Shown one piece after another: positions 1 to 16,699 of a stretch of DNA of 50,304 nt; positions within the stretch are counted from its first letter, which is position 1, and every line of letters starts with the position of its first letter. Position numbers and translations under genes: made by a program. The DNA comes from a virus (lineage: Duplodnaviria > Heunggongvirae > Uroviricota > Caudoviricetes), in the IMG/VR virus record IMGVR_UViG_3300024999_000035, positions 128,001 through 178,304 of that record; one strand, written 5' to 3'. Under the pieces are notes generated by a model. It worked only from the letters and a program-made list of their open reading frames with translations. It ran no database searches and was not told the origin of the DNA.

Positions 1-36
1 GATACAGAGAATAATTAAACTGTTATTTATGAATTG

Positions 37-1305
37 TTATGCAGAATATTTATATAGATACCATAAGTCATGATTTACTACTGCTTTACCTTGTCTGTCT
101 GTTTTGACTGATTTTCTTTCCTGCTTTTCACTGATAAAATTATTCGGCACAGGTTCACGGTCTTTAACTTCTATGCGTTGAATGGTGACAGTTTTATCAG
201 TTAATTTTACTACTTGAAAAGCTCTAATTAATATATCGCTTCCTACTTGATAAGCTCCTACAATGTCACCAATTTTAAAAGGATTTTCTGCTTTTATTTC
301 TTTTTCATCCTTCCAATCTTCTGGTATTTTTACTTCCTTAATTTCTGCATATGGGCAAGAAGCGTCATGTCCGGTTAGTGGGTGTTCTATGAACGTGGCT
401 GTTATGGTCTTAGGGTTAACTCGGATAACCTTTGCCCAACAATTGTAACGATAATTTTGGAACAAATAACCTGGTTTGATGTCTGATTTTGTATAAAGTT
501 TTCTGCCATCTTCTTCGAGTTTATTTTTAGTTTCTTCCATGCAATTCTGAAAATACCCCAACTTGTCAATTTGATACTCTAATTTGTCCATCATTTCATC
601 CAAATAACCTTGAATCTGTTCTGTTGTTTTTGCTTCATAAAAAGAAGATACTGCCTCATTGTTATTCTTTTTATGAATAATATCATTGTAATACGTTGCG
701 TTCTTTTCCAATTTTTTGATATGCTTCAAACATTCTTCAATACGGTTATTTAAGTAGATAGGATTTTTTAATTGAGTAGCATCAGCAGTTTGTCTTGCGG
801 TTTCCGCTTTTTCAGCAAAGTATTCTGACTTTTTATACTCTTCAAATCCTTTGTGGTATCTGTCATAAATCCTTTGTCTACGATTACCAAACGCTTGACT
901 TCCTGCATGTCCGGAAATAATTGGTTGAGTGAAAAAGGAATTATCTCCATGGTGAGACTCTAGTTCAGATTGCAGAGCTTTACCTCTGTTATTTGCATTT
1001 ACAGCATATTGGTCATAACGCTCTGCTCTATACTCTGCTTTTTCTTGTTTGCGTTCAAGTTGTTCGGCAAAGGTTAAGCGTTCACCAGCTTTCTCTTCCT
1101 CTGTAAATCCTAGTTTAATGGCAGTCTGAATTGCTCTATATTGGTTATGGATTCCGCGAGATACCCAAGCATTTGCTGATTTGCTAAAAAGGTATGAGCT
1201 TTTGATTTCCTTTTTAAGTTCATCGGATAATGCAAGATAATCAGATTTTTCAAAGTGTAACTCGATTTTGCCAGTTTCTAGATTCTTAATGTAATTTTTA
1301 CTCAT
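37..1305 (-). CDS. DUF3560-domain protein (mobile-element early/leading-region type)
   Basis: 422 aa ORF with SD AGGAGG; 'RAERY...QPIISGHAGSQAF..RRQRI' matches the DUF3560 pattern from memory. Confidence 0.75.
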   Translation of the reverse strand: MSKNYIKNLETGKIELHFEKSDYLALSDELKKEIKSSYLFSKSANAWVSRGIHNQYRAIQTAIKLGFTEEEKAGERLTFAEQLERKQEKAEYRAERYDQYAVNANNRGKALQSELESHHGDNSFFTQPIISGHAGSQAFGNRRQRIYDRYHKGFEEYKKSEYFAEKAETARQTADATQLKNPIYLNNRIEECLKHIKKLEKNATYYNDIIHKKNNNEAVSSFYEAKTTEQIQGYLDEMMDKLEYQIDKLGYFQNCMEETKNKLEEDGRKLYTKSDIKPGYLFQNYRYNCWAKVIRVNPKTITATFIEHPLTGHDASCPYAEIKEVKIPEDWKDEKEIKAENPFKIGDIVGAYQVGSDILIRAFQVVKLTDKTVTIQRIEVKDREPVPNNFISEKQERKSVKTDRQGKAVVNHDLWYLYKYSA

Positions 1306-1335
1306 GTTATGTACCTCCTAAATTTTAGCATCTTA

Positions 1336-1400
1336 GCAGGACTTGTGACCTGCTTTGTGCATTAATTAGAGCGTTTTGTTATACGCTCTAACCACTCTGC
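1336..1400 (-). ncRNA. Twister self-cleaving ribozyme (circularly permuted, type-P5-like)
   Basis: Minus strand reads GCAGAGUG-G-UUAGAGCGU(AUAACAAA)ACGCUCUAA-U-UAAUGCA-CAAA-GCAGG-UCACAAGU-CCUGC. It has the UAAUGC / GCAGAGUG core, a P4 stem with UCACAAG loop and a CAC:GUG pseudoknot. Confidence 0.85.
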
Positions 1401-1405
1401 AAGGG

Positions 1406-1531
1406 TTATTTCTGTGATTGCAATATAGAAATAGCTAAACGCAATTGTTCAATTTTAACCAAATGTTTAGATTTTTCTCCATTTTCTAATTGTTCCAATT
1501 TTTCTTTTAAAACATAAATTGCATAATCCAT
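1406..1531 (-). CDS. Small hypothetical protein (41 aa, MDYAIYVLKEK...)
   Basis: Read by hand; GGGAGGTG SD; stop codon lies 5 nt before the twister core. Confidence 0.7.
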   Translation of the reverse strand: MDYAIYVLKEKLEQLENGEKSKHLVKIEQLRLAISILQSQK

Positions 1532-1559
1532 AATTAACACCTCCCTTAAAAGTTTGGTT

Positions 1560-1835
1560 TTATTTGTTAATCAAATAGCAATGCTCAACTATCCATTTTC
1601 CTTCTTCTGCATGTATATAATGATCAAGTCTTACTCCGTTGTCTGCTCCATCAAGGCAATCTCCAAAAAGTGAATTACCTATTTTTGAACCATCAAAATA
1701 TTTTGCATTACTAGATACCTTATAACTTCTTTCTAACTCGGAAAAAGGTTTTGTGAAGCTATTTTCAGTGAAAACTATTACGGCTTCTTTCCAGTCCTTA
1801 GAATCCTTTAATTGTCTAAATGTTAATTTATCCAT
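1560..1835 (-). CDS. Hypothetical phage protein (91 aa)
   Basis: ORF track; AAGGAG SD; in operon orientation. Confidence 0.8.
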   Translation of the reverse strand: MDKLTFRQLKDSKDWKEAVIVFTENSFTKPFSELERSYKVSSNAKYFDGSKIGNSLFGDCLDGADNGVRLDHYIHAEEGKWIVEHCYLINK

Positions 1836-1844
1836 TCTAATCCA

Positions 1845-1935
1845 CTCTCCTTAAATTTTAATAGTCTCGAATCAAGGCGAAGTCCTGTTATTGTTATGTC
1901 ACTTCGCCCTATTTCCATACAATCAAAATTAGATT
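1845..1935 (-). ncRNA. Intergenic long hairpin with AUAACAAUAACA loop
   Basis: GGCGAAGU...ACUUCGCC stem with an outer imperfect stem running into the downstream SD. Confidence 0.7.
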
Positions 1936-2421
1936 TTATTCACTTATCAATTCAATAAAACAACCTTTAAAGAAATTACCTTGCCTTATATCATAGAATG
2001 AACTAAAAGGAATTTGAAGCTCTCCAATACCTTTTACCTGTTCCAATATTTTATCAAAATCAATATAACCTTGAGCAATTCCATACATTCCATATTTTAA
2101 CCTTTGATGACCGTATCTATCATTTTCAAGGTCAAAATAATTGTCTTCATTGTTATGGTATTCGTCCCATGTTGCACTTAAATTCTCGTTTTTGTCACTA
2201 AATGCATTTCCGGCAATAAAAGCAAGTTTGTTCTTTAGGTCTAAATCAGTTTCACAGATAAATGCTTTTCCATTGATAGCAATTGCAAAATCATTCATTA
2301 ATTGATGCTCCCAGTCTTTACACTTTTTATCTTGGAATTTTTCAGTGTTGAAAGTAATTTTATACATGTTGATACACGCTCCTTCAAATATTCTAGGCCA
2401 ATTGTTATAGATATTTTCCAC
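1936..2421 (-). CDS. Hypothetical protein (161 aa)
   Basis: ORF track; TGGTATAAT extended -10 upstream (~2455-2463); exact start uncertain. Confidence 0.7.
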   Translation of the reverse strand: MENIYNNWPRIFEGACINMYKITFNTEKFQDKKCKDWEHQLMNDFAIAINGKAFICETDLDLKNKLAFIAGNAFSDKNENLSATWDEYHNNEDNYFDLENDRYGHQRLKYGMYGIAQGYIDFDKILEQVKGIGELQIPFSSFYDIRQGNFFKGCFIELISE

Positions 2422-2517
2422 AATTGCCTTTTCTACTCCGTAATTGATATATTCATTATACCACTATTTTACGAAGTACAAAAGAGAATTAAGGCTAATT
2501 CTCTAAATATTTATTTC

Positions 2518-2658
2518 TTAGTTTAGATAATTTCTGATGCTCTGATATTGCGCCATAAATATTTCAGCATCTTCCTTAGTTTGTGGTACTCCAAATAGTT
2601 TAAAGTTTGCTTGTAAAAATCCGTCTGCATGTAGCTTTTGAATAAATTCCAGTGCCAT
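2518..2658 (-). CDS. Small hypothetical protein (46 aa, MALEFIQKLH...)
   Basis: Read by hand; AAAGGAGGT SD. Confidence 0.7.
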   Translation of the reverse strand: MALEFIQKLHADGFLQANFKLFGVPQTKEDAEIFMAQYQSIRNYLN

Positions 2659-2666
2659 TATTTTTA

Positions 2667-2745
2667 CCTCCTTTAGTTTATATTCCCTCGACAACGTTTC
2701 AACCTGTTTTGTTATGGCTGAAACGCTCTGAGAACATACACACTA
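2667..2745 (-). ncRNA. Intergenic long hairpin with AUAACAAAACA loop
   Basis: GCGUUUCAGCC/GGUUGAAACGU stem; 3' arm has GUCGAG then the SD; begins at the upstream stop codon. Confidence 0.7.
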
Positions 2746-2898
2746 AGATTCTAGCATTTCTTTCAAATTGTCTAATAATTTCTTTTCTTCTGCTCCTGCT
2801 TTATCTAATGGGTTTAATTGTCTGTTTGCCCAATTTACCAACTTCAAAAGTATTTCTTTTTCTTGCTCAGTAACATAAATAGCTTTATATGTTGCCAT
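2743..2898 (-). CDS. Small hypothetical protein (51 aa, MATYKAIYVTEQEKE...)
   Basis: Read by hand; GAAAGGAG SD. Confidence 0.7.
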   Translation of the reverse strand: MATYKAIYVTEQEKEILLKLVNWANRQLNPLDKAGAEEKKLLDNLKEMLES

Positions 2899-2939
2899 TA
2901 TTTTGCTCCTTTCTTTCAGTTTATGTGCTCTATATGTAT

Positions 2940-3494
2940 TTAACTTTTACCTGCAAACTCACCATATAATTCTTTTCTCATTTTCTCAGCATATTTTCCT
3001 GCCTCTTCTAGTTGATCTTTCGGGAATCTTTTTAATGTGGTATTCACTCCCTCAATTTGAAGTTGAACAGACCAAGTGTTACCATTCCAACTAACATTTC
3101 TATATCCTGATTTATTATTTATGTTCTTACTCTTTTTATTCTTGGTATTTTCGCTATTTGTTGTTACTCTTAAATTTGATCTTCTATTATCTAATGTATT
3201 TTCTGCTTCTTTGTGATCGACATATTCATCTTCCTTTGCATTCATAATCCATCTATGAAGATAATGAATTTTATATTTAACTTTTCCATCAAGAGAACCC
3301 AAATATTCACACCAACAAACATAATATGCCCATCCTGCCCACTTAATATGCCAAGGTTGATTATGTTTTATAAGTCTTTTTAGTATATCCTCATCTACTA
3401 AAATAGTGAACTTTTCCTTCTTTTTATTTACTATGTAAAATTGACATTCTCCATCTATTATTTTATATTCGTTGAATGGTTTAAATCGTGCCAT
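2940..3494 (-). CDS. HNH endonuclease with C-terminal AP2 domain (free-standing homing endonuclease)
   Basis: YLHRWIM..VDH....LDNRRSNLR HNH motif plus N.SGYRNVSW..W.VQ AP2 motif. Confidence 0.9.
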   Translation of the reverse strand: MARFKPFNEYKIIDGECQFYIVNKKKEKFTILVDEDILKRLIKHNQPWHIKWAGWAYYVCWCEYLGSLDGKVKYKIHYLHRWIMNAKEDEYVDHKEAENTLDNRRSNLRVTTNSENTKNKKSKNINNKSGYRNVSWNGNTWSVQLQIEGVNTTLKRFPKDQLEEAGKYAEKMRKELYGEFAGKS

Positions 3495-3677
3495 ATTATT
3501 TAAATTCCTTTCTATTTTTATTTACTTTATTTAGTTTTCTTCTTCCTACCCTCCTTAAATTAATATAGAATTTGTACTCTATGCCATTATAGCACTTCAT
3601 ACTATAAAAACCAAATAAATTTATTTTGGCATTTAGTATACGAATATAACTAAATGCCATTCCCGTTTAATTCCAAC

Positions 3678-3757
3678 TCCTTTTAAATTTGACTCGACAC
3701 AAAATAGCGAATCTGTTATAAGTTCCGCTACCTTATGACCAACAAACTTTAAGGATT
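3678..3757 (-). ncRNA. Intergenic long hairpin with UAUAACAG loop
   Basis: CCUUAAAGUUUGUUGG...UAGCGGA/UUCGCUA...GUGUCGAGUCAAAUUUAAAAGGAG; outer arms nearly identical to the element at 5398-5486. Confidence 0.7.
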
Positions 3758-3946
3758 TAATATGCTTTTTACTTCCATCATATGAATAGTATTCTCTAAT
3801 TCGTGTTCGGCTCCTGTCCAATGGTCAATATTACCTTCAGGAAAATTAAAGCCGTTTTCCCATGTAATATCACCATTTTTCATATCAATAGATTTTCGAT
3901 ACCAGGTTTTACGATTTTCTAAACAAACCAATAAATCATTTTTCAT
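3749..3946 (-). CDS. Hypothetical protein (65 aa)
   Basis: ORF track; AAGGAGTG SD. Confidence 0.7.
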   Translation of the reverse strand: MKNDLLVCLENRKTWYRKSIDMKNGDITWENGFNFPEGNIDHWTGAEHELENTIHMMEVKSILNP

Positions 3947-3954
3947 TTAATTCA

Positions 3955-4040
3955 CTCCTTAATTTTAATAGACTCAAACCGAAACATCAAATCGTTATTG
4001 TTATTTGATGTTTCAGGTTTCAACCTACTTTTAAGGATTA
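3955..4040 (-). ncRNA. Intergenic long hairpin with AUAACAAUAAC at the apex
   Basis: 12-bp GAAACAUCAAAU/AUUUGAUGUUUC stem; 5' CCUUAA pairs with the UUAAGG SD region. Confidence 0.7.
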
Positions 4041-5390
4041 AGCAACATTAACATTGTTTACAATATTTAGAATTGCTTGAGCGTCTTCTTGATTTTCTTC
4101 TGCATCGTCCAACTCTTCTGCGGTCACTGTTATAGCAGGTTCAAGGTTTTCAGGCTGTAAAGGTTGCTCCCATTGCTCTTCAATGATTTCCTTTTGTTCA
4201 ACTTCAGGCTCAACCTCTTCAACCTGTTCAAAAGAATTTAGTTTGCTCAACTCTGAATTAATAGCATTCAATCGCATTTCCACACGTTTTAGGTCAATAA
4301 CCTTATCCTGCAAGCCTTCCTTATAATCCTTAGAAGGAGCCTGAAAGAATTTATAAGCCCATGCTGAAAACTCTTCAACGTCAACATTATTTCTTAATGC
4401 AGAATGCGCCGAATACATCAACATAACCGTATTAGTCTTATTCAACCATGTATACCGATAAGTTGAATAATTCTTAACCCTTTTACTCCCTTCTTTTTCA
4501 TCTTCTTTCTTTTTGTTGCTAATCCAAATTTCTGTTGCTTGACTGAGGTAATTAGAGACATTTATCATATCGTCTTCAATTTCTTCCGGCAGTCCCAATT
4601 CTCTAAAGCTATAAATTGACTTGTCAATATTGTCTTTTGATAGCTCAATTGGGCCATTGTTATGTAATAGCGTGATGACTTGAGATAAAATCTCGTCTCC
4701 GGCATTCCCTTTTGTCGCTAGTGGGGTTAGAGCATGTAAAATCCAGTCACTATCCAAAATTGATCTAAAGAATTTACGTGTATCGCTCCCCATAGCTGCT
4801 TTGCGAATCTCAGAAGGTTTTAAACCTTTAGCTCCGCTATTCATTTGAACGAATGCTTTTTCTGCATCTTCCTCAGAACAATTATTCATAGTTGTTATTC
4901 TGAGTTGATAACCTTTAATAATATCCTGCCATAGTTCAGGAAGTTCTGAAAATGTTTTGCCCTGGAGTGTTTCGTTAGCGTTAAATTGTTCGCCTTCAAT
5001 AGTAAACTTAGGAAACATGGTTTTTGATACATCAAGTTTGAACCCATTGTTAATGAAAAGGTAAATTGAAGTTAATCTCTGCTGCCCATCCACTGTTTTA
5101 CGAAATTGGCTTTTATCATCGGCTCTGTAAACTGTTATTTCGGGAATAGGATTTTTTAGAAGAACAGTTTGGATTAAGTTTGAAGCTCTCCAAGTCTCCC
5201 AGACGTATGCTCTTTGAGATTCCATGTACTCTCGAAGAGTTTTAAGTTCCTTACCTTCGGCTTCCTTTTTATCGGCAAGAAAATTTTGCAAATGTTTGCC
5301 GACTGTGTAATATTGCTTTTCAATATGTTCAACTAGAGTTCCAATGTCTCGTTTTTCCGTGGTATAAGTGATTTCTTTTTCTTCAGACAT
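4038..5390 (-). CDS. DUF262 (ParB/Srx-like, GmrS-type) domain protein with acidic C-terminal tail
   Basis: QRAYVW, DGQQRLTSI and FVQMNSG..L motifs; start re-called to ATG 5390 (MSEEK) after GAAGGAG SD. Confidence 0.85.
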   Translation of the reverse strand: MSEEKEITYTTEKRDIGTLVEHIEKQYYTVGKHLQNFLADKKEAEGKELKTLREYMESQRAYVWETWRASNLIQTVLLKNPIPEITVYRADDKSQFRKTVDGQQRLTSIYLFINNGFKLDVSKTMFPKFTIEGEQFNANETLQGKTFSELPELWQDIIKGYQLRITTMNNCSEEDAEKAFVQMNSGAKGLKPSEIRKAAMGSDTRKFFRSILDSDWILHALTPLATKGNAGDEILSQVITLLHNNGPIELSKDNIDKSIYSFRELGLPEEIEDDMINVSNYLSQATEIWISNKKKEDEKEGSKRVKNYSTYRYTWLNKTNTVMLMYSAHSALRNNVDVEEFSAWAYKFFQAPSKDYKEGLQDKVIDLKRVEMRLNAINSELSKLNSFEQVEEVEPEVEQKEIIEEQWEQPLQPENLEPAITVTAEELDDAEENQEDAQAILNIVNNVNVA

Positions 5391-5397
5391 TTTTACC

Positions 5398-5486
5398 ACT
5401 CCTTCTAATTTACTCGACACTAGCAACAAATTGTTATGTCTGTTATTTTTATCTTGTTGCTAATAACGAACAAACTTTAAGGGTTA
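5398..5486 (-). ncRNA. Intergenic long hairpin with two AUAACA copies in the loop
   Basis: UAGCAACAA/UUGUUGCUA stem; CCUUAAAGUUUGUU 5' arm and GUGUCGAGUAAAUUAGAAGGAG 3' arm. Confidence 0.7.
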
Positions 5487-5744
5487 GTTAATTGAGGTAA
5501 TATCCCACGAATAAACCTGAATTCTTTTTCCTTCTGCTGTTACAAGATTGTAAACAATTGCGTCTGATTGATGACTAAAAAATACATTCAGACATTTACC
5601 CTCAACTCGTGTACGCTCACAAGTCCTTAAATTCAGTTTATTGGCCTTGACATATTTTCCAATGTCTGCCTTGTCTTGTTCTGCTCCTTCCATCATTGCT
5701 CTGTCAATTGATGCGTTTTTGCTTGCCATTGATGTAAAACTCAT
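5484..5744 (-). CDS. Hypothetical protein (86 aa)
   Basis: ORF track; AAAGGAGTGG SD directly downstream of the hammerhead. Confidence 0.8.
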   Translation of the reverse strand: MSFTSMASKNASIDRAMMEGAEQDKADIGKYVKANKLNLRTCERTRVEGKCLNVFFSHQSDAIVYNLVTAEGKRIQVYSWDITSIN

Positions 5745-5764
5745 TTAATACCACTCCTTTTCTA

Positions 5765-5839
5765 ATTAACCTGCCATCTTCAGTATGTAGCGGTTAACCT
5801 ACATAGACAAGGGACTTAATGTTATTCCCTTGTTTCGGC
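5765..5839 (-). ncRNA. Hammerhead ribozyme, type II
   Basis: GCC-GAAA-CAAGGGA(AUAACAUUAAG)UCCCUUG-UC-UAUGUAG(GUUAACCG)CUACAUA-CUGAAGA-U-GGC-AGGUUAA. Full core, GUC cleavage triplet, and loop I UUAACC can pair with the 3' GGUUAA. Confidence 0.92.
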
Positions 5840-5962
5840 TTATTCCTCCCATTTATAGGAAATTACTTCTAAATCCTCTTTCTCTAGGTTATAAACTTCT
5901 TCTAGGTCGTTGCACTCAAGAAATTGAGTGGTGCCACCATTTTTAACCTTTACAATATACAT
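5840..5962 (-). CDS. Small acidic hypothetical protein (40 aa, MYIVKVKNGG...)
   Basis: Read by hand; GAAAGGAG SD; stop codon abuts the hammerhead. Confidence 0.7.
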   Translation of the reverse strand: MYIVKVKNGGTTQFLECNDLEEVYNLEKEDLEVISYKWEE

Positions 5963-6005
5963 TGTTTACTCCTTTCCAATCCCAACAAATGTCTTTTTGA
6001 TTGGG

Positions 6006-6428
6006 TTAAGATTTCACTCGATATGCTTTTGACACTAAAGCCTCTAAACACTGTTTAAACACCTTTTTTAGTTGTGACTTAGTCATACCATAGTCAAAGG
6101 GAATTTTAATTCCAAATGAACCATTGCAGGAATTTACCCCATAACCAATGTGAAAACAAGGGATATCAGAATAAGGAGCAAAAACAATGTTATATGTACT
6201 ATCATAGAAACCTTTAGTAATGTGTGGGTAGTTGCTAACGTGTACAATTTCATTACCAACTATTTCTCCATATTGTACACCTATTTGAATAGCAGGGAAT
6301 AATGTTGCATCTAAATTGCTTGCAACGTAATCGCGGAAAGTTAAAACAATTTGATCACGTTTCGCATGGATTTCCTTTTGTGTTTTTACCTTTGCAGTTT
6401 TACGCTCAACAACTTTTAATAATGACAT
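6006..6428 (-). CDS. Hypothetical protein
   Basis: ORF track 6006..6464; start re-called to ATG 6428 after GAAAGAGGT SD. Confidence 0.75.
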   Translation of the reverse strand: MSLLKVVERKTAKVKTQKEIHAKRDQIVLTFRDYVASNLDATLFPAIQIGVQYGEIVGNEIVHVSNYPHITKGFYDSTYNIVFAPYSDIPCFHIGYGVNSCNGSFGIKIPFDYGMTKSQLKKVFKQCLEALVSKAYRVKS

Positions 6429-6448
6429 AATTATTACCTCTTTCATTC

Positions 6449-6636
6449 TTAAATTTTTGCACAAGGTCTAAACTCAATTGTTATAAAAGTTCACACCTTG
6501 CGGAAAATTTAATCCCTTCAGCCTTAAGTATAATCAATTTAACATTAAATTACAACAACCTGCATTTTAATTTTGTTATGCAAGTTTAGTGTAATTGTTA
6601 TGATTAAATTGTAATAATGAATAAACTGAAGGGATT
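6449..6636 (-). ncRNA. Two adjacent long hairpins carrying AUAACAA
   Basis: 6449-6512 (UUAAAUUUU..GCAAGGU / ACCUUGU..AAAAUUUAA) and 6511-6636 (AAUCCCUUCAG/CUGAAGGGAUU closing stem). Confidence 0.65.
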
Positions 6637-6674
6637 TTATAGAATGTTTTTGGTTAATTCTCTCTTTTTGCTTC

Positions 6675-7035
6675 AGGGATATGCTTTTGTTAATGCCTAC
6701 AATTTAATTTTTAGTTAAGAATGTCTTTTAACTTGCAAAGATAATTTTTTAAGCTGTACAAATCAGAAAATTGTATTTTCTTTTCTGGAGCATATTTCGA
6801 AATTTTCATAGAAGTGTAGGCTGATATTTCGAAATCACAGAAACAAATTTGATCGAATTGGTTATAATTTTCTTCATTCCTAATTATTTCATCGTTAGTA
6901 TTAAAAACCTTTAATTGAGGAAAATTATTCACAATTTCCTCGAAATGATTTTTAACGATATAATCAGAAGAAATTAAAGCTATCATAATTTTATCATACT
7001 CCTTTTTGAGTAGGCACTAACAGGAGCATATCCCT
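6675..7035. repeat. 26-bp inverted repeat enclosing gene 6711-6986
   Basis: AGGGATATGCTTTTGTTAATGCCTAC (6675-6700) vs GTAGGCACTAACAGGAGCATATCCCT (7010-7035); 23/26 complementary. Confidence 0.9.
6711..6986 (-). CDS. Hypothetical protein (91 aa)
   Basis: ORF track; AAAGGAG SD; lies inside an IR loop. Confidence 0.7.
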   Translation of the reverse strand: MIALISSDYIVKNHFEEIVNNFPQLKVFNTNDEIIRNEENYNQFDQICFCDFEISAYTSMKISKYAPEKKIQFSDLYSLKNYLCKLKDILN

Positions 7036-7041
7036 AGAGAT

Positions 7042-7220
7042 TTTTATCTTTTCCTCTATCCCTTCTAAAATATTCCTATTTGTTTCGTTATCTTGTACTT
7101 TCATTTCTTCTTGGCTGCTTTCTGCATCATTCGCAAAATTAAGCTTTTGAATGAAATATACTAACACAGAGGACTTCTCTACGTTCGGAATATTTTAGGA
7201 AAGGATAAGGGAAGATAAAA
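7042..7220. repeat. ~35-bp imperfect inverted repeat enclosing ~110 nt
   Basis: TTTTATCTTTTCCTCTATCCCTTCTAAAATATTCC (7042-7076) vs GGAATATTTTAGGAAAGGATAAGGGAAGATAAAA (7187-7220). Confidence 0.85.
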
Positions 7221-7230
7221 GAGAGTTTTT

Positions 7231-7511
7231 AAGGCTTTTCAATCTAGCTTAGAACATAGCATGTTATTGTTATTTAAAAATTCTTTTGATATTCTGCTCT
7301 CCATTTTCCGTCAAAAACTTCGTAAGAATCTTTTAAAAGATATCCGGTTTTTGATAACCATTCCGATCTTGATAATGCCATAATTTCCTTATTCATTTCT
7401 TCTTGACTGTCATATTCGTAAATTTGAATCTCAATAACTTGTTTCGACATTTTCAACAACTCCTTAAATATTAAGTATGTTGCTATGCTCTAAGCTAGAC
7501 TAAAAAGTCTT
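7231..7511. repeat. 30-bp inverted repeat enclosing gene 7274-7450
   Basis: AAGGCTTTTCAATCTAGCTTAGAACATAGC (7231-7260) vs 7482-7511; 4 differences, 3 of which are G-U pairs in the minus-strand RNA. Confidence 0.9.
7274..7450 (-). CDS. Small hypothetical protein (58 aa)
   Basis: Start re-called to ATG 7450 after AAGGAG SD; stop is followed by ATAACAATAAC. Confidence 0.75.
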   Translation of the reverse strand: MSKQVIEIQIYEYDSQEEMNKEIMALSRSEWLSKTGYLLKDSYEVFDGKWRAEYQKNF

Positions 7512-7931
7512 TTATCCCTTACAATTATACCTACATCCTGTCTTAATTTCCACTCTCTTTTTCGAGGAACAAACAAATTATTTTTGACTTTAAATTGATA
7601 AACTGTATGTAGATCCCCATTGGCCTCCCATTGGGCCAGACTTGATTGTTATGGAATATCCAGCTTTTTCGATTCGGAGAAGCAAAGCAAAGAATGATGC
7701 TTGATATTTTGAAGAGTAGTATCGAGCTTTGCCTTTTAGAGATTTTAAGGGATTTGTTATAGTGGAATAGGATAATAGGTCTTTTAGGATTTGATACTGC
7801 CATGAACCCTTTGCAAGTTTTAAAAATGAATCTTTTTGAGTTTGTGACATTTTTATTTCCCACTTTCTTAATTTTATTTTTTATTAAGAGAGCAGAAATT
7901 AAGACAAGAATTAAGTTTTTGTAAGAGATAA
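7512..7931. repeat. ~47-bp imperfect inverted repeat enclosing gene 7590-7850
   Basis: 7512-7559 vs 7886-7931; mismatches in the paired segments are G-U wobbles on the minus strand, around a central internal loop. Confidence 0.85.
7590..7850 (-). CDS. Hypothetical basic protein (86 aa), first gene of the leftward operon
   Basis: ORF track; 'LKGKARYYSSKYQASF..L' looks conserved; inside an IR loop. Confidence 0.75.
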   Translation of the reverse strand: MSQTQKDSFLKLAKGSWQYQILKDLLSYSTITNPLKSLKGKARYYSSKYQASFFALLLRIEKAGYSITIKSGPMGGQWGSTYSLSI

Positions 7932-7933
7932 TT

Positions 7934-8085
7934 TGCTGTCTAGCATACAGACTGATGAGCTGCCTTTAGCTGAGTTAAGCTAGATCACGCATATTAAGTT
8001 GAGAAAGAACGTCCTTACAAGTCGGACAAGACTTGTGCTACTGGCTGTAAAACCACTTTGTAGCTGGTGTACTCGCTACCCTCCT
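7934..8085 (-). ncRNA. Candidate structured 5' leader RNA
   Basis: GC-richer than its flanks; hairpins ACAAGUC/GACUUGU (loop UUGUCC, can pair with downstream GGAC), UAGC/GCUA and GUCU/AGAC; follows a consensus promoter. Confidence 0.5.
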
Positions 8086-8117
8086 TTGTTTTATTTATGT
8101 ATTGTTTAACTGTCTTT

Positions 8118-8146
8118 ATTTTAATGGTTTGCAAGGGATATGTCAA
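8118..8146 (-). promoter_or_regulatory. SigA-type promoter for the leftward operon
   Basis: TTGACA-N17-TAAAAT. Confidence 0.8.
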
Positions 8147-8481
8147 CAATTATTTTTGCATTATTAGACGTTTTGTAGTCCTATTTTATTGTAGTGGATA
8201 TAGACACAATTCAAATGATTTTATTGATCTTGTGGTCTTATTTACCACATTTCGCTTCTGAGACGTTTAAAATGTATGCTAGGTAAGAATATAAAGGCCA
8301 GTATGTTTAAATCGCTTAGAGTGGCCTTTTTGTGGCTGTGATTTTGGTGTGATTTTGGTGTGATAGGGTTAAAAGTTGTGGAATTGATTTTTTGTGAGTG
8401 ATCCCGGCAAAACCTAAAGCATATAAAAATGGATTTTTAATGGGTTGGAGAGAAAAGAAAAAGAGCTATTTTATTCAGCTC

Positions 8482-9075
8482 TTACTCATAAAACATTTTG
8501 GAATTTTTAAACTCATTGACTTTGTTTTTAATAAATTGGTCTATATCGAATTTTACCATTTCGGTATTAATATATTGATTTGAGAAAGTACAAACTGTGT
8601 AATAATTGATATAACTTGTCGAGGGTATTTTTAATTGTTCGTTAATGTCTATAATTAGTTCAACGGTTTCCTTCCTGCGGTTTACTTTAGCAAGGAGGAC
8701 ATATTTTTTATATTCAACGTTACTATATGATGTCCTGTACCTTTCCCCTGCTTCTGATAGTTCATAAACCTTTTTAATGTTTTCTGGTAATAATGCAAGA
8801 AAATTTTCTTGACTGAGCATGTCTCGTTCCTTCTCTGCATTGTCTAATGTTGCAATGTAGCGGTTAAAACTGCTTTTGTTTTTAGTCTGGTATATTGTAT
8901 CATCTCCCAAAAATTCTTCAACTTCGATATTGAGTTTTTCGGCTAATTGCTTCAGATTGCATTTGTAACCATATTCACGGCTAGAGTTTGGATAAGTCAC
9001 ATAATATTTACTAGCCTTTTTTACAATTGATCCTGCAAACTTGGATTGCAATTGCTCAAGTTTTAACTCCTTCAT
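8482..9075 (-). CDS. Hypothetical protein
   Basis: Start re-called to ATG 9075 (MKELK) after AAAGGAG; TGCTATAAT upstream. Confidence 0.75.
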   Translation of the reverse strand: MKELKLEQLQSKFAGSIVKKASKYYVTYPNSSREYGYKCNLKQLAEKLNIEVEEFLGDDTIYQTKNKSSFNRYIATLDNAEKERDMLSQENFLALLPENIKKVYELSEAGERYRTSYSNVEYKKYVLLAKVNRRKETVELIIDINEQLKIPSTSYINYYTVCTFSNQYINTEMVKFDIDQFIKNKVNEFKNSKMFYE

Positions 9076-9320
9076 TGCGCCAACTCCTTTAATATATCTG
9101 ATATTAACATTATAGCACAGAAACAATAAAAATAGTCATGTTGAATAAAATTATTTTTACATTTGATAAGGTTTAAAGGGTTATATTTTGCCAGTGGTGT
9201 ATGTATATAGGGTATAGAGTATAAACCACTTAGAGTGCCATTTATGACGTTCTAAGGGTTATTTGATGCCTATAAGATATAGGTTTCGAATACAAAAAGA
9301 AAAAACCCTATAAATAGGGT

Positions 9321-9476
9321 TTAATATCTTTGATTTTCATAAGCATTTTCTACCATGCACTCTATTTCAAACTCTTCTTGGCCTTGTGCTTCTTGATCTT
9401 TTAAGCAATCTTTATAATCTTTACATTTATTACACTTATCAGAATATGTTTTAGGATTCCCAAAATCATCACACAT
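9321..9476 (-). CDS. Small Cys-rich protein (51 aa)
   Basis: Read by hand; AAAGGAG SD; followed by hairpin AAACCCTAT/ATAGGGTTT and a T-run. Confidence 0.65.
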   Translation of the reverse strand: MCDDFGNPKTYSDKCNKCKDYKDCLKDQEAQGQEEFEIECMVENAYENQRY

Positions 9477-9734
9477 ATTAAATTACTCCTTTTTATTTTG
9501 TTTGATTATAATATATCAAAATTTATGAATATTGTCTAGTGGTTTGTAAAAATTATTTTATTCCCCATTAAATTGGGCATTTGGATTGCTTTGGAATATT
9601 AATAACTGGCCTAAACTATGTTCTGCTACAACACAATAAAAATAAGTAAAATGTTGCTTGCTGCACGCACAAAAACACATATGTATTTGTAGGAAGGACA
9701 TTGGAAATAAAGAAAAAGGACTTATTACTAAGTC

Positions 9735-9911
9735 CTAAAATAACATACTATAATTATTAGCTTGTTCTATATCATCAAACCAAATTTTATTATGACATTG
9801 TGGGCATATTTTTGTATTGTCCCAATCAACGCCTTTTTGTATTTTGTTTCCGCAAGCTTCACATTCCCAGTGGTCTTCTAGTTCTATGTATATTACATCT
9901 TTATCCTGCAT
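9735..9911 (-). CDS. Small zinc-ribbon protein (58 aa)
   Basis: Read by hand; AAGGAGGTG SD; CEAC...CPQC. Confidence 0.75.
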   Translation of the reverse strand: MQDKDVIYIELEDHWECEACGNKIQKGVDWDNTKICPQCHNKIWFDDIEQANNYSMLF

Positions 9912-9989
9912 TTTTTCACCTCCTTCAATAATTAATTTATATTATCATTAATGATGGTATATGTCTATACAAAAAGAAAAGAAGTATTT

Positions 9990-10742
9990 CTACTTCTTAA
10001 TCTCTTTTACTAATACTCTAAAGTGCCAACACTGTATATTATAACCTCCTGCTGATATTGTCTCAACTTTTGCCTTTCCTAGTTCGCCTATGATATAACC
10101 GTTAATTTCTCCATTTAGGCCAATGTATAAGTTTTGAGCATCTAAAATCTTTCCAGTGATCTTTTTTACTCTTGTTACTAAAAATTGCCTTTTTATGTTT
10201 TTATCTTTTTCAATTTCCCTTTCTAATTCTTTTTCCCAACTATTTCTATAAAGTTGGTATAGTTTTAGTGTGAGAGAATGAAAAGAAGAGTTTAGTTTTT
10301 TAGCTTGCGTTTCGTGATCTATACCTAGTTCTTTTTGCTTTTCTTTATACTCCTTTCCATAGTGGTATATATGGGTTTCTTCCTGCCATAATCTGAATTC
10401 TTTTTCCTTTTTGCTTAACTCCTTGTGGTATTCTTTTAGGTTTTGATATTCCACTTTAAACCACTCAATAACTTTTATTTTCCATTCTTCTAAAAATTCT
10501 TCAATGACTGGAATTCGCTCAACTTCGTTTTTCTTCTGCTCTTTCTCCTGTTGTTTGGAAAGATTTTCTAATTGGATCTCTAAGTCTTTGAGTTTAGACT
10601 GACTTGTTTTTAAGTCATCTTTTGCCCATTTAAGATCCCATTCGTCGGTAATAGTTTCAATTTTCTTCTCTTGCTTAGTGATTAAGTTTTTTCTTTTCTG
10701 GATGTCTAATTGTTTTTTATCGATCCGCTCTAATAGTGTCAT
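9990..10742 (-). CDS. Coiled-coil phage protein (250 aa)
   Basis: AAGGAGG SD; C-terminal GEINGYIIG...VETISAGGYNIQCWHFRVLVK resembles a widespread phage hypothetical family. Confidence 0.8.
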   Translation of the reverse strand: MTLLERIDKKQLDIQKRKNLITKQEKKIETITDEWDLKWAKDDLKTSQSKLKDLEIQLENLSKQQEKEQKKNEVERIPVIEEFLEEWKIKVIEWFKVEYQNLKEYHKELSKKEKEFRLWQEETHIYHYGKEYKEKQKELGIDHETQAKKLNSSFHSLTLKLYQLYRNSWEKELEREIEKDKNIKRQFLVTRVKKITGKILDAQNLYIGLNGEINGYIIGELGKAKVETISAGGYNIQCWHFRVLVKEIKK

Positions 10743-10959
10743 ATGTATCCTCCTTAAAATTGATCATGATTAATAATACCATACAAATTAATAAAGTACA
10801 ATATAATTATTTCTATATTCAATAATAATTTTAAAAATTGCGTTCGTTCCATTTTATCATGAAAATTATAGATTTGTATATAGGTTTTAGAAAATTATTT
10901 TATAGTTCTGCTACCGATAAAACAAGAGATTTAAGGCATTGAGACAAAGAAAAAGAGAC

Positions 10960-11376
10960 TTATTCAGCCTCTTTAGCACCAACTAACAAATATTCGCCAT
11001 CACTACCAAATTTATAAGGATTTAGATACCCTTCAATTTTTACAACTGGCCTATTTTTTGTAGCAATAAACATTAGAGATACTTTATCAACATCATTATT
11101 TTCAATACCATAAATCTCCATTGTGGATACTCCATGCTCCGGTAACTGATCCCTAAAATTATAACTTTGTCCTGATTCTGGAATATCTCCATATCTCCAA
11201 CCTTTGACATATTCAGGAAAATCATAACCTTTATAACCACACTCAAAAAAGAAATTTAGAGTAAAATCAAAAAAGTAAATATCTGGTGCAAGATTGCTGT
11301 ATATAATGGTGCTTATGTCAGTTCCTTGGAGGGATTTTCCTTTGTTGTATGCATTAATAAAAGATTGGTTTGTCAT
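10960..11376 (-). CDS. Hypothetical protein, possible ADP-ribosyltransferase-like fold
   Basis: AAGGAGG SD; GWRYG...EHGVS...GSDGE pattern; function is inference. Confidence 0.6.
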   Translation of the reverse strand: MTNQSFINAYNKGKSLQGTDISTIIYSNLAPDIYFFDFTLNFFFECGYKGYDFPEYVKGWRYGDIPESGQSYNFRDQLPEHGVSTMEIYGIENNDVDKVSLMFIATKNRPVVKIEGYLNPYKFGSDGEYLLVGAKEAE

Positions 11377-11429
11377 TGGGTGTGACCTCCTTTATTGATA
11401 TTGAATTAGTAGATAATAAGATAATAAAA

Positions 11430-11458
11430 AAACCTATGATTTATTTTATCATAGGTTT
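11430..11458 (-). terminator. Intrinsic terminator-like hairpin
   Basis: AAACCTATGAT/ATCATAGGTTT followed by a T-run on the minus strand. Confidence 0.6.
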
Positions 11459-11485
11459 ATGGATAGTGCAATATTATTTTTATAT

Positions 11486-11803
11486 TTAATCCTGAAGCAA
11501 TCCAAGGTCAATTATTTTATCATCAGCAATATTTTCCGGTGTATTGTTGCTATCCACTGAGCATTCAAACCATTTGTCTTTTACATTTGATGCAGTAAGG
11601 ATTATAAAGGCTTCGCCATTTTCATTTTGTAGGATTGTATGATAAGCTGAATCTAATGGACTGTAGGTAGATTGTGTGGCTAGTGCTATCATTGTGTAGG
11701 AGTGATCGGAGTTTGGTTGTATTGAGGGTGAAGCTGAAGTTGTTAGGATTGAAGATGTTAGGAGAGTGAGGGAAAGGGTTAAGATAGATATTAATTTTTT
11801 CAT
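11486..11803 (-). CDS. Secreted/exported small protein
   Basis: Signal peptide MKKLISILTLSLTLLTSSILTTSAS. Confidence 0.75.
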   Translation of the reverse strand: MKKLISILTLSLTLLTSSILTTSASPSIQPNSDHSYTMIALATQSTYSPLDSAYHTILQNENGEAFIILTASNVKDKWFECSVDSNNTPENIADDKIIDLGLLQD

Positions 11804-11826
11804 TTTGTGGCCTTCTTTCTTTTATT

Positions 11827-12081
11827 TTATCTAAATACCAATTCTAGGTTTAAGTCTTTACCGTGACCCAATTTGATAGCATCGTGTAAGAGATTATACA
11901 CGGTTAATTCGTTGAAGGTATCAGCAGAAGTATTTTCAAATGCTACATGTTTAAATGCTTTTCTTCCTTCTCCAGTATAATTTTCCTCTAAATAGTTGAA
12001 AGCTTCTTGAATAGTTCTTTTACCGTTTAGGACTTTAGAAAGGATTTGATTGACTCCATTAGGCCAGTATGCTTTTTGCAT
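11827..12081 (-). CDS. Hypothetical protein (84 aa)
   Basis: AAGGAGG SD; TTTACA-N18-TATAAT promoter at 12124-12153. Confidence 0.75.
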   Translation of the reverse strand: MQKAYWPNGVNQILSKVLNGKRTIQEAFNYLEENYTGEGRKAFKHVAFENTSADTFNELTVYNLLHDAIKLGHGKDLNLELVFR

Positions 12082-12439
12082 TTATGTATTTCCTCCTTTT
12101 GATATTTATTTAGTAATATTGATATTATAGCATTGATTTATATTTATTGTAAAGTATTTATTTTAGAATTTATAAACATATCAAAGGAATAAGAAGAAAG
12201 AAAAGATTATTAGAAGTATAAATTCAGTCATTGAGCGAATAGCGAAATGCTGACATACGGTCTCGGATCACTGTATTTATTGAGAATTATAATATTAGGA
12301 TTTAAATAAATCTAATCAAAATTAATAAAGTTGATAAATGCTATTTTGAGCTTGTCTCAAAATTGAAAAGACGCTGTCAGCTAATGTTAGTTTTGATTTG
12401 ATTATTTGGATTAGTCAATTATACTATATTAAGGGTTCG

Positions 12440-12491
12440 TAATTCGTCACCAATATCTATATTAATATATATAGTTATTCATGACGAATTA
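12440..12491. repeat. 10-bp inverted repeat around an AT-rich core (ori-like)
   Basis: TAATTCGTCA-N32-TGACGAATTA immediately downstream of the helicase-like gene. Confidence 0.6.
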
Positions 12492-12494
12492 GAA

Positions 12495-14234
12495 TTATTT
12501 CTTAATTATATGATTAACTCGATTAATCTTTATTAATTCTATATTTAACTCATTAACTATTTTTTGGACAATATCATCTTTCCATAGTCTACTAAAATTA
12601 GTTGGTTTATATTCTATTTGTTCTAATAAATCATTAACTGGATATTGCTTATTAACATCTAACAATTTAAGTAATTCAATAAATTTATTACAATAACTAT
12701 TTTCTTTTCTCTCCTTGCTATCATATTTCTTTACTTTTTCCTCATGCAATTTAAAATTAACAACATTAATATCTTTTAGTTGTTGAATAATAACATTTAC
12801 AATCTCAATATCACCATTAATTAAATAAACGTCTGCTTTATCTTCTATATGCCCTGTTCCCCTATTAATTCTTTTAATCCCTTGATATATACTAGATATA
12901 ATATCAGTTTTCCTTAAACTCTCCAATGTTTCATTATATTTAAATCCCATGTTTTTATTGATTTTCTGGAATTTAAATTCCTCTTCGGTTGGCACTTCTC
13001 CTGTATAAAGCATATACATGAATATGTAATAGGGTGCTGGCATTACTGGCGTGTGAATAATAAAGCATTTATTAAAATCTTTCCAATCGTTCTTTCCTCT
13101 CATATTTTGGAAATTACTATATTTGATATTCTCTAGATGTATAAGTTTCTCACTGTAATTATTATTTATGTGTGCAATATCCTCTTCTAGTCCTAACACT
13201 AAAATATTATCCTTTTCAGCGCATTCCTTGATAATTAATGCCACAATATCTTTATAAAAATTATCATCATTATGTTTTGCTGTTTTGGTGCTATTAGTGT
13301 TAGATATATGGATAGTCCAATTATTATGCGGAAAAATGCGCTCTGCTTCATTAAGTTTGAATTGATTTCCTAGTTTGTATAGTTCGTGGAATTTTGCTGA
13401 TGCATCAAGAAGTATATTATTGTCAAGGAAGAAATACTTTAAATCATCATCAAAAGTATATAATGTTTTATTACTGACTAATACTTTAGGATTATTAAAG
13501 TATTTCTTTAGTATTTCAAGTTTATCTAATAGTTTAAGTTTATTTGTAAATATATTCTGACTATAACCTAAATGGAATTCATAATTATTTGTAAAAGGTG
13601 TTTCATTAACCATTAATTTTAACATATCAATTGCTTTTTCTATCTTTGTGCTAGTAAATTCAAAATATCTTAATGTTTTGTCGTGACATTGATCCTTCTT
13701 TTCAACTAATTCAGATATGATTCTATTGAATGCTACTTCTAAATCGATATACATATTTTCTTCAGCATCAATATATTTTAAACCTCTTAGGGTTCGTCTT
13801 AATATGTCTATGTCTGTATCTCCCAGAGAATCCATTTCAACCATATTTAATTCTTCATCAATTATTAAATTTGTACGCTCTGCTATGTAATATTTGCGTT
13901 TATGATAAGGGTCTTTACAGAGTTTTTTATACATTGCATGAGTAATAATGAGCACTTCATACTTTTTAAGGTCTTTCTCATATCTTTCCTTATTTTCTGA
14001 ATTCTCATCTTTAGCCATGTTTGGTTTAAATTTATTAAGTTCACTTGCAATTAGTTTTCCCTCATCAATAAATTTTGTTACAATTAAAGTTTTGATTGGT
14101 TTATTGTTTAATGAGTTCGTGGTGGCTGATAGTTCCTTTAGTGTTTCAATAATTGTATGAGTTTTTCCGATTGCTGCCTCACACATAAAGACATTAAATA
14201 ATTCTTCAATTTTAGTAAATATACTATTATTCAT
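12495..14234 (-). CDS. SF2 helicase-like / Rep-associated P-loop protein
   Basis: Walker A EAAIGKT, IITH, Walker B LIIDEE, LDASA, RGKND, YQGIKRINR; start re-called to ATG 14234 after AAGGAG, coupled to the upstream stop. Confidence 0.75.
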   Translation of the reverse strand: MNNSIFTKIEELFNVFMCEAAIGKTHTIIETLKELSATTNSLNNKPIKTLIVTKFIDEGKLIASELNKFKPNMAKDENSENKERYEKDLKKYEVLIITHAMYKKLCKDPYHKRKYYIAERTNLIIDEELNMVEMDSLGDTDIDILRRTLRGLKYIDAEENMYIDLEVAFNRIISELVEKKDQCHDKTLRYFEFTSTKIEKAIDMLKLMVNETPFTNNYEFHLGYSQNIFTNKLKLLDKLEILKKYFNNPKVLVSNKTLYTFDDDLKYFFLDNNILLDASAKFHELYKLGNQFKLNEAERIFPHNNWTIHISNTNSTKTAKHNDDNFYKDIVALIIKECAEKDNILVLGLEEDIAHINNNYSEKLIHLENIKYSNFQNMRGKNDWKDFNKCFIIHTPVMPAPYYIFMYMLYTGEVPTEEEFKFQKINKNMGFKYNETLESLRKTDIISSIYQGIKRINRGTGHIEDKADVYLINGDIEIVNVIIQQLKDINVVNFKLHEEKVKKYDSKERKENSYCNKFIELLKLLDVNKQYPVNDLLEQIEYKPTNFSRLWKDDIVQKIVNELNIELIKINRVNHIIKK

Positions 14235-14238
14235 AATT

Positions 14239-14523
14239 TTACTCCTTAAAGGTATTAGTTGTTCGTGTGCTTGTTGGTTTAGTGTTTGCAATATTGATTT
14301 TGTAGACATCATTAAAAGTATTATTCCTCCAATCGTGAAATTCTTTTATAGTTTTTTGTAATTCAGGACTATTAGAAAATATGAATACATTTAAATTTGG
14401 ATTATCCCTTGATTGCTCCATATTATGTAGTTTAAACCCTTTGAGCATAAAGAACCCACATAATTGTTGTGATTTGCAAACAAAAACAGGTGAATATGAT
14501 TTTGAATAATTAGCGTTATTCAT
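14239..14523 (-). CDS. DUF5659-like small protein
   Basis: SQQLCGFFMLKGF...NVFIF.NS.EL pattern; AAGGAG SD. Confidence 0.7.
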   Translation of the reverse strand: MNNANYSKSYSPVFVCKSQQLCGFFMLKGFKLHNMEQSRDNPNLNVFIFSNSPELQKTIKEFHDWRNNTFNDVYKINIANTKPTSTRTTNTFKE

Positions 14524-14671
14524 TGATAATTAACTCTCCTTTTAATTATATTTGATTTTTTGTTACTTGTATTGGGATTAGATTATAATAAGACTGATGT
14601 ATATTTTTACTCCTTTCAATTTATTTTGTAAATATTGTCTAGGAAATAAATTTGAATATCCCTAGAAGTTC

Positions 14672-14700
14672 ATTATAGCATTTATAGAAATGGTTGTCAA
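14672..14700 (-). promoter_or_regulatory. SigA promoter
   Basis: TTGACA-N17-TATAAT with TG extension. Confidence 0.85.
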
Positions 14701-14909
14701 ACATTATTTTATGGTTTGTTTTTTGTAGTGATCGGGAAGATTAGAGTTGATAATTATTAGTATTATAGGATTTGAGATTATAGCGGAATGTAGTTTATAT
14801 TGCTTTGATATGCGCTAGGATTGGTTGTGAGAGGGTTTATGTGATTAGATGAAGGATTAAGAAAAGAGACTCGTTAGAGCCTCTTAGTGATTTTATTTTA
14901 TTTTTGATG

Positions 14910-15293: not shown

Positions 15294-15570
15294 TTGGATA
15301 CACTTCCTTTTTATTTATTTTTGGTTTGAATGATTTATGTAATTGATTTATTTTAGCATAGTATTTTAGGTTATGTCAATGGTGTATTTTATATTTATGT
15401 TGTAGGCGGATTGATTTGTAATAGTATAAAGGATTTATAAAGGTTGATAGATTTAGTATTAGAGGTCACAGGATGATGTTTAAGAGGTTTAGATAGGATT
15501 GGAGTATAATTCCAGGTGAAAGAAAAATGAGAGCGTTTAAGTCCTCATTTGATGGATTTTATTATTCATT

Positions 15571-15708: not shown

Positions 15709-15774
15709 TTTGTTCTTACTCCTTCCCTTACCATTTTATCTCTACTTTAAAAGTTGGTTTATCTTTCCTTATTG

Positions 15775-16650: not shown

Positions 16651-16699
16651 ATGTAAGCAACTCCTTTATTAATTCAACTTGTTTATTTATTTTAACATT

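Follow-up and report, generated by a model that had tools for sequence, protein, structure and literature searches.

Tandem long-range stems around exchangeable genes in a groundwater phage

Why would a phage enclose one gene after another in long inverted repeats of their own? The question is raised by a 50,304-nucleotide (nt) stretch of DNA, hereafter the window, which is the final 50 kb of a 178,304-base-pair (bp) IMG/VR virus record (IMGVR_UViG_3300024999_000035; CheckV-rated complete, ~28% G+C). On the minus strand at 6675-7931, four long-range inverted repeats (U1-U4) abut one another, with two strong hairpins beyond them at 6450-6635, and three of the four stems hold a complete open reading frame (ORF) with its Shine-Dalgarno sequence (SD). 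We report that these stems are structures selected for pairing and that they are the units of mosaicism in the region. The helix most likely forms as RNA in the mRNA, and the reading we prefer, at a probability of about 0.58, is that the arms make helices in the sense transcript that host RNase III would cut into end-protecting frames, the same frames doubling as homology arms.

An array of gene-enclosing stems

A sequence-only reading of the window had proposed four nearly abutting units, three looping out a complete SD and ORF and one empty, with two empty hairpins beyond; all of these were found at the positions it gave (Table 1). The enclosed ORFs encode 86 (U1), 58 (U2) and 91 (U4) amino acids. 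U1 is closed by a 13-bp outer and a 23-bp inner helix with an asymmetric internal loop between them, and U2 by arms of 31 nt each, 30 of which pair as RNA; U3 has ~34 bp with bulges around a 110-nt loop, and U4 has 26 bp. We treat U3 as empty: its one candidate, an ORF of 33 codons that extends from the loop into the arms, lacks conservation in two relatives (L006 and L029) and was rejected as a gene. Unit geometry is regular, with the 5' arm ending 18-47 nt upstream of the ATG, the SD always in the loop at 5-17 nt before the ATG, and the 3' arm starting 8-50 nt (mostly 8-35 nt) past the stop codon. No T-run follows the 3' arms, which are therefore not intrinsic terminators. That the arms are unrelated to one another, as the same reading had it, holds within the window and fails among relatives, where many arms group into families.

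The minimum free energy fold of the whole ~1.5-kb region recovers all four long-range stems and both hairpins, at -379.4 kcal/mol for the coding strand versus -354.3 kcal/mol for the other strand. U3 folds alone with z = -6.0, and hairpins A and B with z = -8.2. Genes lie on the minus strand throughout window positions 1-17,000.

The cluster of inverted repeats is real and has no equal elsewhere in this genome. A G-U-aware scan without gaps over all 178,304 bp (spacing 60-1400 nt, score cut-off of at least 20) returned five pairs on the minus strand, three of them U1, U2 and U4, all inside 1.3 kb; five dinucleotide-preserving shuffles of the genome yielded 0.4 such pairs per strand scan. When 317 crude ORFs were ranked by the duplex energy between their 5' and 3' flanks, U2 (-68.5 kcal/mol), U4 (-59.5 kcal/mol) and U1 (-58.9 kcal/mol) took ranks 1-3 over a median of -25.9 kcal/mol (standard deviation 7.8 kcal/mol). 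An inverted repeat with 59-nt arms, the strongest in the genome (genome 101886-102327; L010:1087-1528), was rejected as a further case, consisting of two divergently oriented paralogous coding sequences with no gene in the loop. No Rfam family matches the stems or the relatives' loci.

Table 1. Features of the array along the minus strand, in window coordinates
Feature	Position	Strand	Remarks
Early promoter P1	8118..8146	-	TTGACA-17-TAAAAT, 11/12 consensus positions; heads the array
Variable leader, P1 to U1	7932..8110	-	Not conserved in relatives; fold z = -0.44 versus shuffles
U1 5' arm	7886..7931	-	Outer helix 7919-7931, inner helix 7886-7908; pyrimidine-rich
U1 cargo, 86-amino-acid ORF	7590..7850	-	Conserved first gene of the array
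U1 3' arm	7512..7559	-	Inner helix 7537-7559, outer helix 7512-7524; purine-rich; embeds promoter-like P2
U2 5' arm	7481..7511	-	Pairing and covariation in the U2-type frame
U2 cargo, 58-amino-acid ORFan	7274..7450	-	Hypervariable slot
U2 3' arm	7231..7261	-	Pairing and covariation in the U2-type frame
U3 5' arm, pyrimidine-rich	7187..7220	-	Fold
U3 loop	7077..7186	-	No conserved ORF; small terminator-like hairpin 7163-7185
U3 3' arm, purine-rich	7042..7076	-	Fold; both-sided changes versus L006
U4 5' arm	7010..7035	-	Pairing and covariation
U4 cargo, 91-amino-acid ORFan	6711..6986	-	ORF
U4 3' arm	6675..6700	-	Pairing and covariation
Hairpin A, 'empty' frame	6513..6635	-	Basal stems kept in relatives; loop 98 nt
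Hairpin B	6450..6512	-	Immediately upstream of the following ORF's SD (ATG at 6428)

Conserved pairing and changing cargo in relatives

Relatives were gathered by protein and by arm. An annotated phage collection contained nothing similar to the locus, and IMG/VR contributed only one other related phage, present in four samples. The 86-amino-acid U1 protein has 22 metagenome homologues (72-94% identity), whose contigs were retrieved, and an exact search with the 25-nt U1 5' arm added 50 further metagenome contigs. Phage and relatives alike come from metagenomes of groundwater and rock porewater, and the same gene-in-stem architecture recurs in ~60 related groundwater metagenome contigs. A census of the 50 contigs from the exact arm search comprised 104 distinct units, up to six in a row, sorted into 17 families by arm and 34 unrelated families by ORF; in 92 of the 104, one ORF takes up 60% or more of the loop. 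Flank duplex energies in the relatives' loci are bimodal, lying at -48 to -75 kcal/mol in the zone from the U1 gene on and at roughly -10 to -30 kcal/mol for other genes.

Pairing is what these relatives keep. Conservation and covariation of the arms, proposed beforehand as one test of the structures, were borne out in the U1, U2-type, U4-type and pyrimidine/purine families. In the inner helix of 11 distinct U1 sequences, 99.6% of positions pair; its 5' arm never varies, the six variable pairs differ on the 3' side only, always by A to G opposite U, and 3'-arm positions that face C, A or G are constant. The U2-type frame (18 distinct sequences) has 91.4% of cells paired versus 30-48% when the partner is slid by 1-3 columns, and six of its pairs (14 cells) changed on both sides, a number of double-change cells reached by none of 500 shuffles, the covariation score being reached by two of 500. 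Counted by columns, double-change pairs number 10 among six stems of the U4 type and 18 among eight from a pyrimidine/purine arm family; in these two sets 78-81% of positions pair in the correct register, compared with 33-50% in the registers beside it. In the IMG/VR relative L006 both U3 arms have diverged with pairing retained, as read directly from the arms. The stems are thus structures selected for pairing.

Arms are more conserved than the coding sequence that they enclose. Among U1 relatives the inner 5' arm is invariant in 23 of 23 columns and the ORF in 51%, with no invariant column in the 29 nt before the 5' arm or in the 32 nt after the 3' arm. The 5' arm (7886-7910) is invariant in 11 relatives and present as an exact 25-mer in 50 contigs, while the ORF diverges to 72%. 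Variable columns of that ORF are distributed over the three codon positions as 38/22/67, and this excess at third positions marks it as a real gene. It is carried by 48 of the 50 arrays, and the U1 frame always holds it. Its product, modelled with AlphaFold at a mean predicted local distance difference test score (pLDDT) of 79.7, is a small helix/strand domain whose structural matches are weak (E >= 0.13) and nearly all to winged-helix DNA-binding proteins (MarR, PadR, PagR and TFE-alpha); on this model the U1 protein may weakly be called winged-helix-like.

Promoter-like elements accompany U1 in the relatives. The block around P1 (8089-8174) is 83-100% identical in nine of them, and the leader at 8088-7932 is not conserved. 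Within the U1 3' arm lies P2 (7524-7552, minus strand; TGGAAA-17-TATAAT), its -35 box in the helix and its -10 box in the internal loop. The pattern T(G/A)GAAA ... TA(T/A)AAT occurs in all 40 distinct U1 units, with a 17-nt spacer in 39, and P2 probably serves as a second promoter for the array's variable part. Each relative also has a long non-coding stretch of 600-1000 nt upstream of its U1 unit (for example L021:2123-2914 and L023:1969-2917), of which only the promoter block is shared with the window.

Imperfections in the helices carry a strand bias. Under a scoring scheme equal for G-T and A-C, the stems of the 104 units contain 259 G-U, 53 A-C and 56 other non-standard positions versus 2390 Watson-Crick pairs; when each arm family is represented by one unit, the ratio of G-U to A-C is 24:10 (p = 0.024). 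Of 13 independent units, 10 have the more stable arm duplex on the coding strand, the mean difference being -6.5 kcal/mol (Wilcoxon p = 0.006). Pyrimidines dominate most 5' arms and purines most 3' arms, so that U-G wobble is possible in the sense strand only. On the coding strand, G-U accounts for non-Watson-Crick positions roughly five times as often as on the other strand, and mRNA is therefore the molecule in which the stems most likely form. These counts uphold the view that coding-strand pairing favours RNA, and the accompanying claim that mismatches are mostly G-U stands for U1 (four G-U, no A-C) and U2 (three G-U, one A-C) and does not extend to U4 (two G-U, three A-C).

Cargo changes at the arms. 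In BLAST comparisons of ten relatives with the window, breakpoints coincide, to a few nucleotides, with the outer edges of the arms (7929-7941 and 7505-7515). Homology in the U2-type frame covers the 5' arm, the spacer and the SD up to the ATG, is lost, and resumes ~10 nt past the stop codon; 19 distinct units with this frame hold 16 ORF families, and the three cargo proteins compared first have zero mutual similarity. One pyrimidine/purine frame holds nine ORF families in nine units, and the U4-type frame three. Searches of Pfam and PHROGs returned nothing for 11 cargo ORFs. Some U2-type units combine the 5' arm of one subtype with the 3' arm of another, and these chimeric arms are direct traces of crossovers in conserved flanks. 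The order of arm families along the arrays is roughly fixed (U1 type, then U2 type, later U4 type, with others between and after), which indicates homologous slots exchanged by recombination in conserved flanks rather than single-site insertion.

The IMG/VR relative illustrates such exchange at close range. It shares only window positions 7133-6436, keeping U4 with identical arms and retaining U3 with a 66-nt loop in place of the 110 nt seen here; in place of U1 and U2 it carries a 351-amino-acid HNH/AP2-like ORF with repeated IEINGE..T..EW motifs (L006:1242-2297). Hairpin A, with its 98-nt loop in the window, has a loop of ~267 nt in several relatives (L023:3677-3982, L025:2913-3211 and L029:2041-2338), the ~170 additional nucleotides belonging to a different, non-coding apical part. 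Cassette gain, loss and swapping of loop content, which had been suggested as a comparison to make among related phages, are accordingly abundant, and the helices are the units of mosaicism. Elsewhere in the phage genome, a 252-amino-acid paralogue of the HNH/AP2-like protein (genome 120856-121614; L011:56-814) adjoins a hairpin with a 24-bp stem (genome 121583-121703).

Contigs from aquifer runs agree with this and serve only as a pointer, not as proof of excision, their joints having short sides and mostly not-known content between them. Compared with the ORFs, summed contig depth is 5-40 times higher over arms and hairpin A, reaching ~40 times that of neighbouring ORFs at hairpin A (6537-6627), and joints occur at arm edges and from 7909 to 8089.

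A proposed RNA mechanism and its alternatives

In the reading that we prefer, an early operon would be transcribed from the sigma-70-type promoter P1 (8146-8118) and from the promoter in the U1 3' arm. Once each cistron is made, its pyrimidine-rich 5' arm would pair with the purine-rich 3' arm, closing the SD and ORF into the loop of a 23-35 bp helix. Host RNase III could then cut the polycistronic RNA into monocistronic mRNAs whose 5'-phosphate and 3'-hydroxyl ends are still paired together, which would protect both ends against exonucleases and insulate each ribosome-binding site from neighbouring genes, whatever cargo is plugged in. The constant frame, running from arm through untranslated region (UTR) and SD and again from past the stop codon into the other arm, would supply homology for recombination among co-infecting relatives; any ORF could be dropped into this ready-made expression socket, and easy exchange of cargo would follow from conservation of the frame. 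A stronger formulation, in which conserved RNA sockets each release and insulate one mini-mRNA and serve as homology arms for exchange of a large pool of unrelated ORFans, probably host-takeover or anti-defence genes, the whole being an RNA-structured, recombinase-free analogue of the integron, we put forward tentatively and with some doubt.

Helix length suits the enzyme. An ideal RNase III substrate has ~22 bp, or two helical turns, and its products carry a 5'-phosphate, a 3'-hydroxyl and a 2-nt overhang (PMC3867540); the inner helices of U1 (23 bp), U2 (31 bp), U3 (~34 bp) and U4 (26 bp) all reach that length. A twister-P5 ribozyme lies between two genes at 1337-1401 (minus strand), ~5 kb further down the same leftward cluster (Rfam, 53.5 bits versus a gathering cut-off of 37.6, E = 3.5e-9), which places transcript segmentation in the repertoire of this phage. 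Rfam searches at E <= 5 did not recover a hammerhead noted earlier at 5765-5839. Circularisation of the released mini-mRNA, once suggested, finds no support: the phage has neither RNA_ligase (PF09414) nor RtcB (a search for Rnl1 was uninformative, the controls also being without a match), and RNase III would leave its ends at the helix terminus, with no nick to ligate.

Several points count against this account. Its mechanistic parts (stem cleavage, mRNA stability and co-transcription) are ones that we infer. Pfam searches that match eight bacterial control genomes found no RNase III encoded by the phage, so cleavage would rely on the host. The strand bias cannot strictly separate RNA from sense-strand single-stranded DNA (ssDNA), in which G-T wobble forms too, and U4 has no coding-strand bias at all. 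Some U2-type units with chimeric arms have two T-T mismatches in the outer helix, a sign that selection on that helix is loose. Invariance of the U1 5' arm exceeds what pairing needs and points to an extra constraint, such as a protein or DNA site.

The same RNA helices might also act uncut, the closed loop protecting the ends, standardising access to the ribosome-binding site or helping ribosomes to recycle from stop to start on short ORFs. All of the structural, covariation and strand evidence applies equally to such loops, P2 transcripts would start a few nucleotides before the U2 5' arm, and folding predictions for 26 units make the SD window more accessible in the full unit than in nascent RNA for 24 of them (mean accessibility 0.25 rising to 0.45). 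That opening is non-specific, however, with shuffled 5' arms giving 0.35 versus 0.31; by the same figures we rejected an anti-SD switch, in which the 5' arm would mask the SD until the 3' arm is made, as shuffled 5' arms mask it equally. In most bacteria, moreover, RNase III should cut near-perfect helices of 23-31 bp (PMC3867540), and we regard uncut loops as unlikely. If the arms instead folded as DNA, whether as attC-like ssDNA or as cruciforms, a recombinase could move whole arm-gene-arm cassettes, an idea that suits the cassette-like units with breakpoints at arm edges, the very high cargo diversity and the G-T pairs possible in ssDNA. The phage does encode one tyrosine recombinase, but it is generic and Xer-like, lies 28 kb away and scores 42.7 bits against a cut-off of 265 bits for TIGR02249; there is no Y1 (IS200/IS605) transposase, no core motif is common to the arm families, and the arms enclose a gene at 190-380 nt with no local attC. 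The preferred order of arm families fits homologous slots rather than one attI-like site, and the homology of the U2-type frame through UTR and SD to the ATG is the pattern of recombination by homology. We consider DNA-level cassettes improbable, and the attC-like version raised by the sequence-only reading finds no support, since there is no integron integrase or shared core site, the arms flank the gene rather than lying 3' of it, and slot order is kept. The recombinase gene itself (genome 105.5-108 kb; L037:1453-2130, minus strand) encodes a 225-amino-acid protein that has only the catalytic domain, is closest to the Xer families and falls short of every curated cut-off.

Two further explanations seem to us very improbable. 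Paired DNA operators, bound by a phage regulator such as the winged-helix-like U1 protein and looping out each gene, would account for a U1 5' arm more invariant than RNA pairing requires and for the conserved promoter that overlaps the U1 3' arm, and the U1 product weakly resembles MarR/PadR-type winged-helix proteins. As duplex DNA, however, the arms differ at every G-U position, compensatory changes keep complementarity and not sequence, 17 unrelated arm families could not be read by one regulator, and the structural matches of U1 are weak, as given above. The arms could otherwise be scars without present function, left by genes inserted into hairpin loops and kept complementary by template-switch gene conversion; loop content does vary even in empty units (U3 and hairpin A, above). 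Conversion would not, however, yield a five-fold excess of G-U over A-C on the sense strand, nor keep the arms above the ORFs in conservation across 72-94% protein identity, and pairing persists in 104 distinct units.

Other features of the surrounding sequence are recorded for completeness. A 24-nt inverted repeat (87.5%, 383 nt between arms; 9138-9161 and 9545-9568) lies just upstream of a 214-amino-acid ORF. A protein with only the GmrSD_N (DUF262) domain, encoded at 4038-5429 (minus strand), is a mosaic relative to its L006 counterpart, with identical termini and a middle of ~30% identity; the flanks of this gene in relatives form a moderately strong duplex (-34 to -39 kcal/mol). The motif ATAACAA is not enriched in the window (29 occurrences versus 26.9 expected), with 17 of the 29 on the minus strand of the first 8 kb (window 1-8200) and several in hairpin loops or just before 3' arms, such as a conserved copy before the U2-type 3' arm.

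Relation to known systems

16S and 23S rRNA are each enclosed by a long-range helix and cut out of the precursor by RNase III. Processing stems of this kind, to which the units had been likened from the start, appear by analogy to be the closest mechanistic model: in both, flanks pair over hundreds of nucleotides, in tandem in one transcript, with helices of RNase III length. Unlike the pre-rRNA stalks, each phage unit holds a small cistron that codes for protein and has its own SD, and as many as six units follow one another, with many arm families, interchangeable cargo and cleavage that we infer. The early polycistronic mRNA of phage T7 has five RNase III signals in ~7000 nt (PMC3867540). 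There, as proposed here, host RNase III makes monocistronic, hairpin-ended mRNAs; the T7 signals are local intercistronic hairpins, whereas in the array the two helix strands stand on opposite sides of a gene.

Pairing between the 5' UTR and 3' UTR is found in the hbs mRNA of B. subtilis. Another case is the icaR mRNA of Staphylococcus aureus, whose 3' UTR pairs with the SD, represses translation and creates an RNase III substrate (PMC3868564). The phage units share with icaR the intramolecular pairing of mRNA ends and differ from it in their much longer helices and their serial, modular arrangement, and also in leaving the SD unoccluded in the loop, at the arm-to-ATG distances given above. 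Each arm pair is single-copy in the genome, with no flanking direct repeats and no Y1 transposase, in contrast to miniature inverted-repeat transposable elements (MITEs) or insertion sequences (ISs).

Our literature searches turned up no account of protein-coding genes arranged in tandem, each closed by a separate long-range stem and with cargo that can be exchanged. If the proposed mechanism is true, maturation in the style of pre-rRNA would extend to protein-coding phage genes, in tandem, and the virus would give any newly acquired ORF a context-independent transcript and ribosome-binding site. Synthetic biologists build comparable insulators from ribozymes or nucleases. The hypervariable slot, with 16 unrelated ORFs from a handful of aquifer samples, could be searched through its invariant arms for the cargo of early genes, candidate anti-defence proteins among them, the conserved arms being ready-made primers and probes. 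The array also offers a clean example of a mosaic phage region whose conserved element would be RNA structure rather than protein sequence.

Integron cassettes consist of an ORF and an attC site and form arrays of short, diverse and mostly promoterless ORFs in the same orientation. Like the phage units they are bounded by imperfect inverted repeats with strand-specific folding. Unlike integrons, the phage array has no attI and no IntI, beside the array or otherwise; its repeats enclose the ORF from both sides, its 17 arm families have no conserved core sites or shared end motif, and its slot order is conserved. In T4-type phages, promoter-early stem-loop (PeSL) cassettes flank ORFans and are shuffled as modules by homologous recombination (PMC2839356). 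PeSLs resemble the phage units in placing conserved regulatory flanks around ORFans in a hyperplastic early region, the U1 3' arm likewise carrying a promoter, and ORFan exchange between close relatives of our phage has its breakpoints in such conserved flanks. PeSLs are direct repeats of a local promoter and terminator hairpin, with no pairing across the gene and no arm-to-arm covariation, whereas the stems of the array are long-range and only the U1 3' arm holds a conserved promoter-like element. The PeSL system is the nearest evolutionary analogue of the array, and the integron a looser one.

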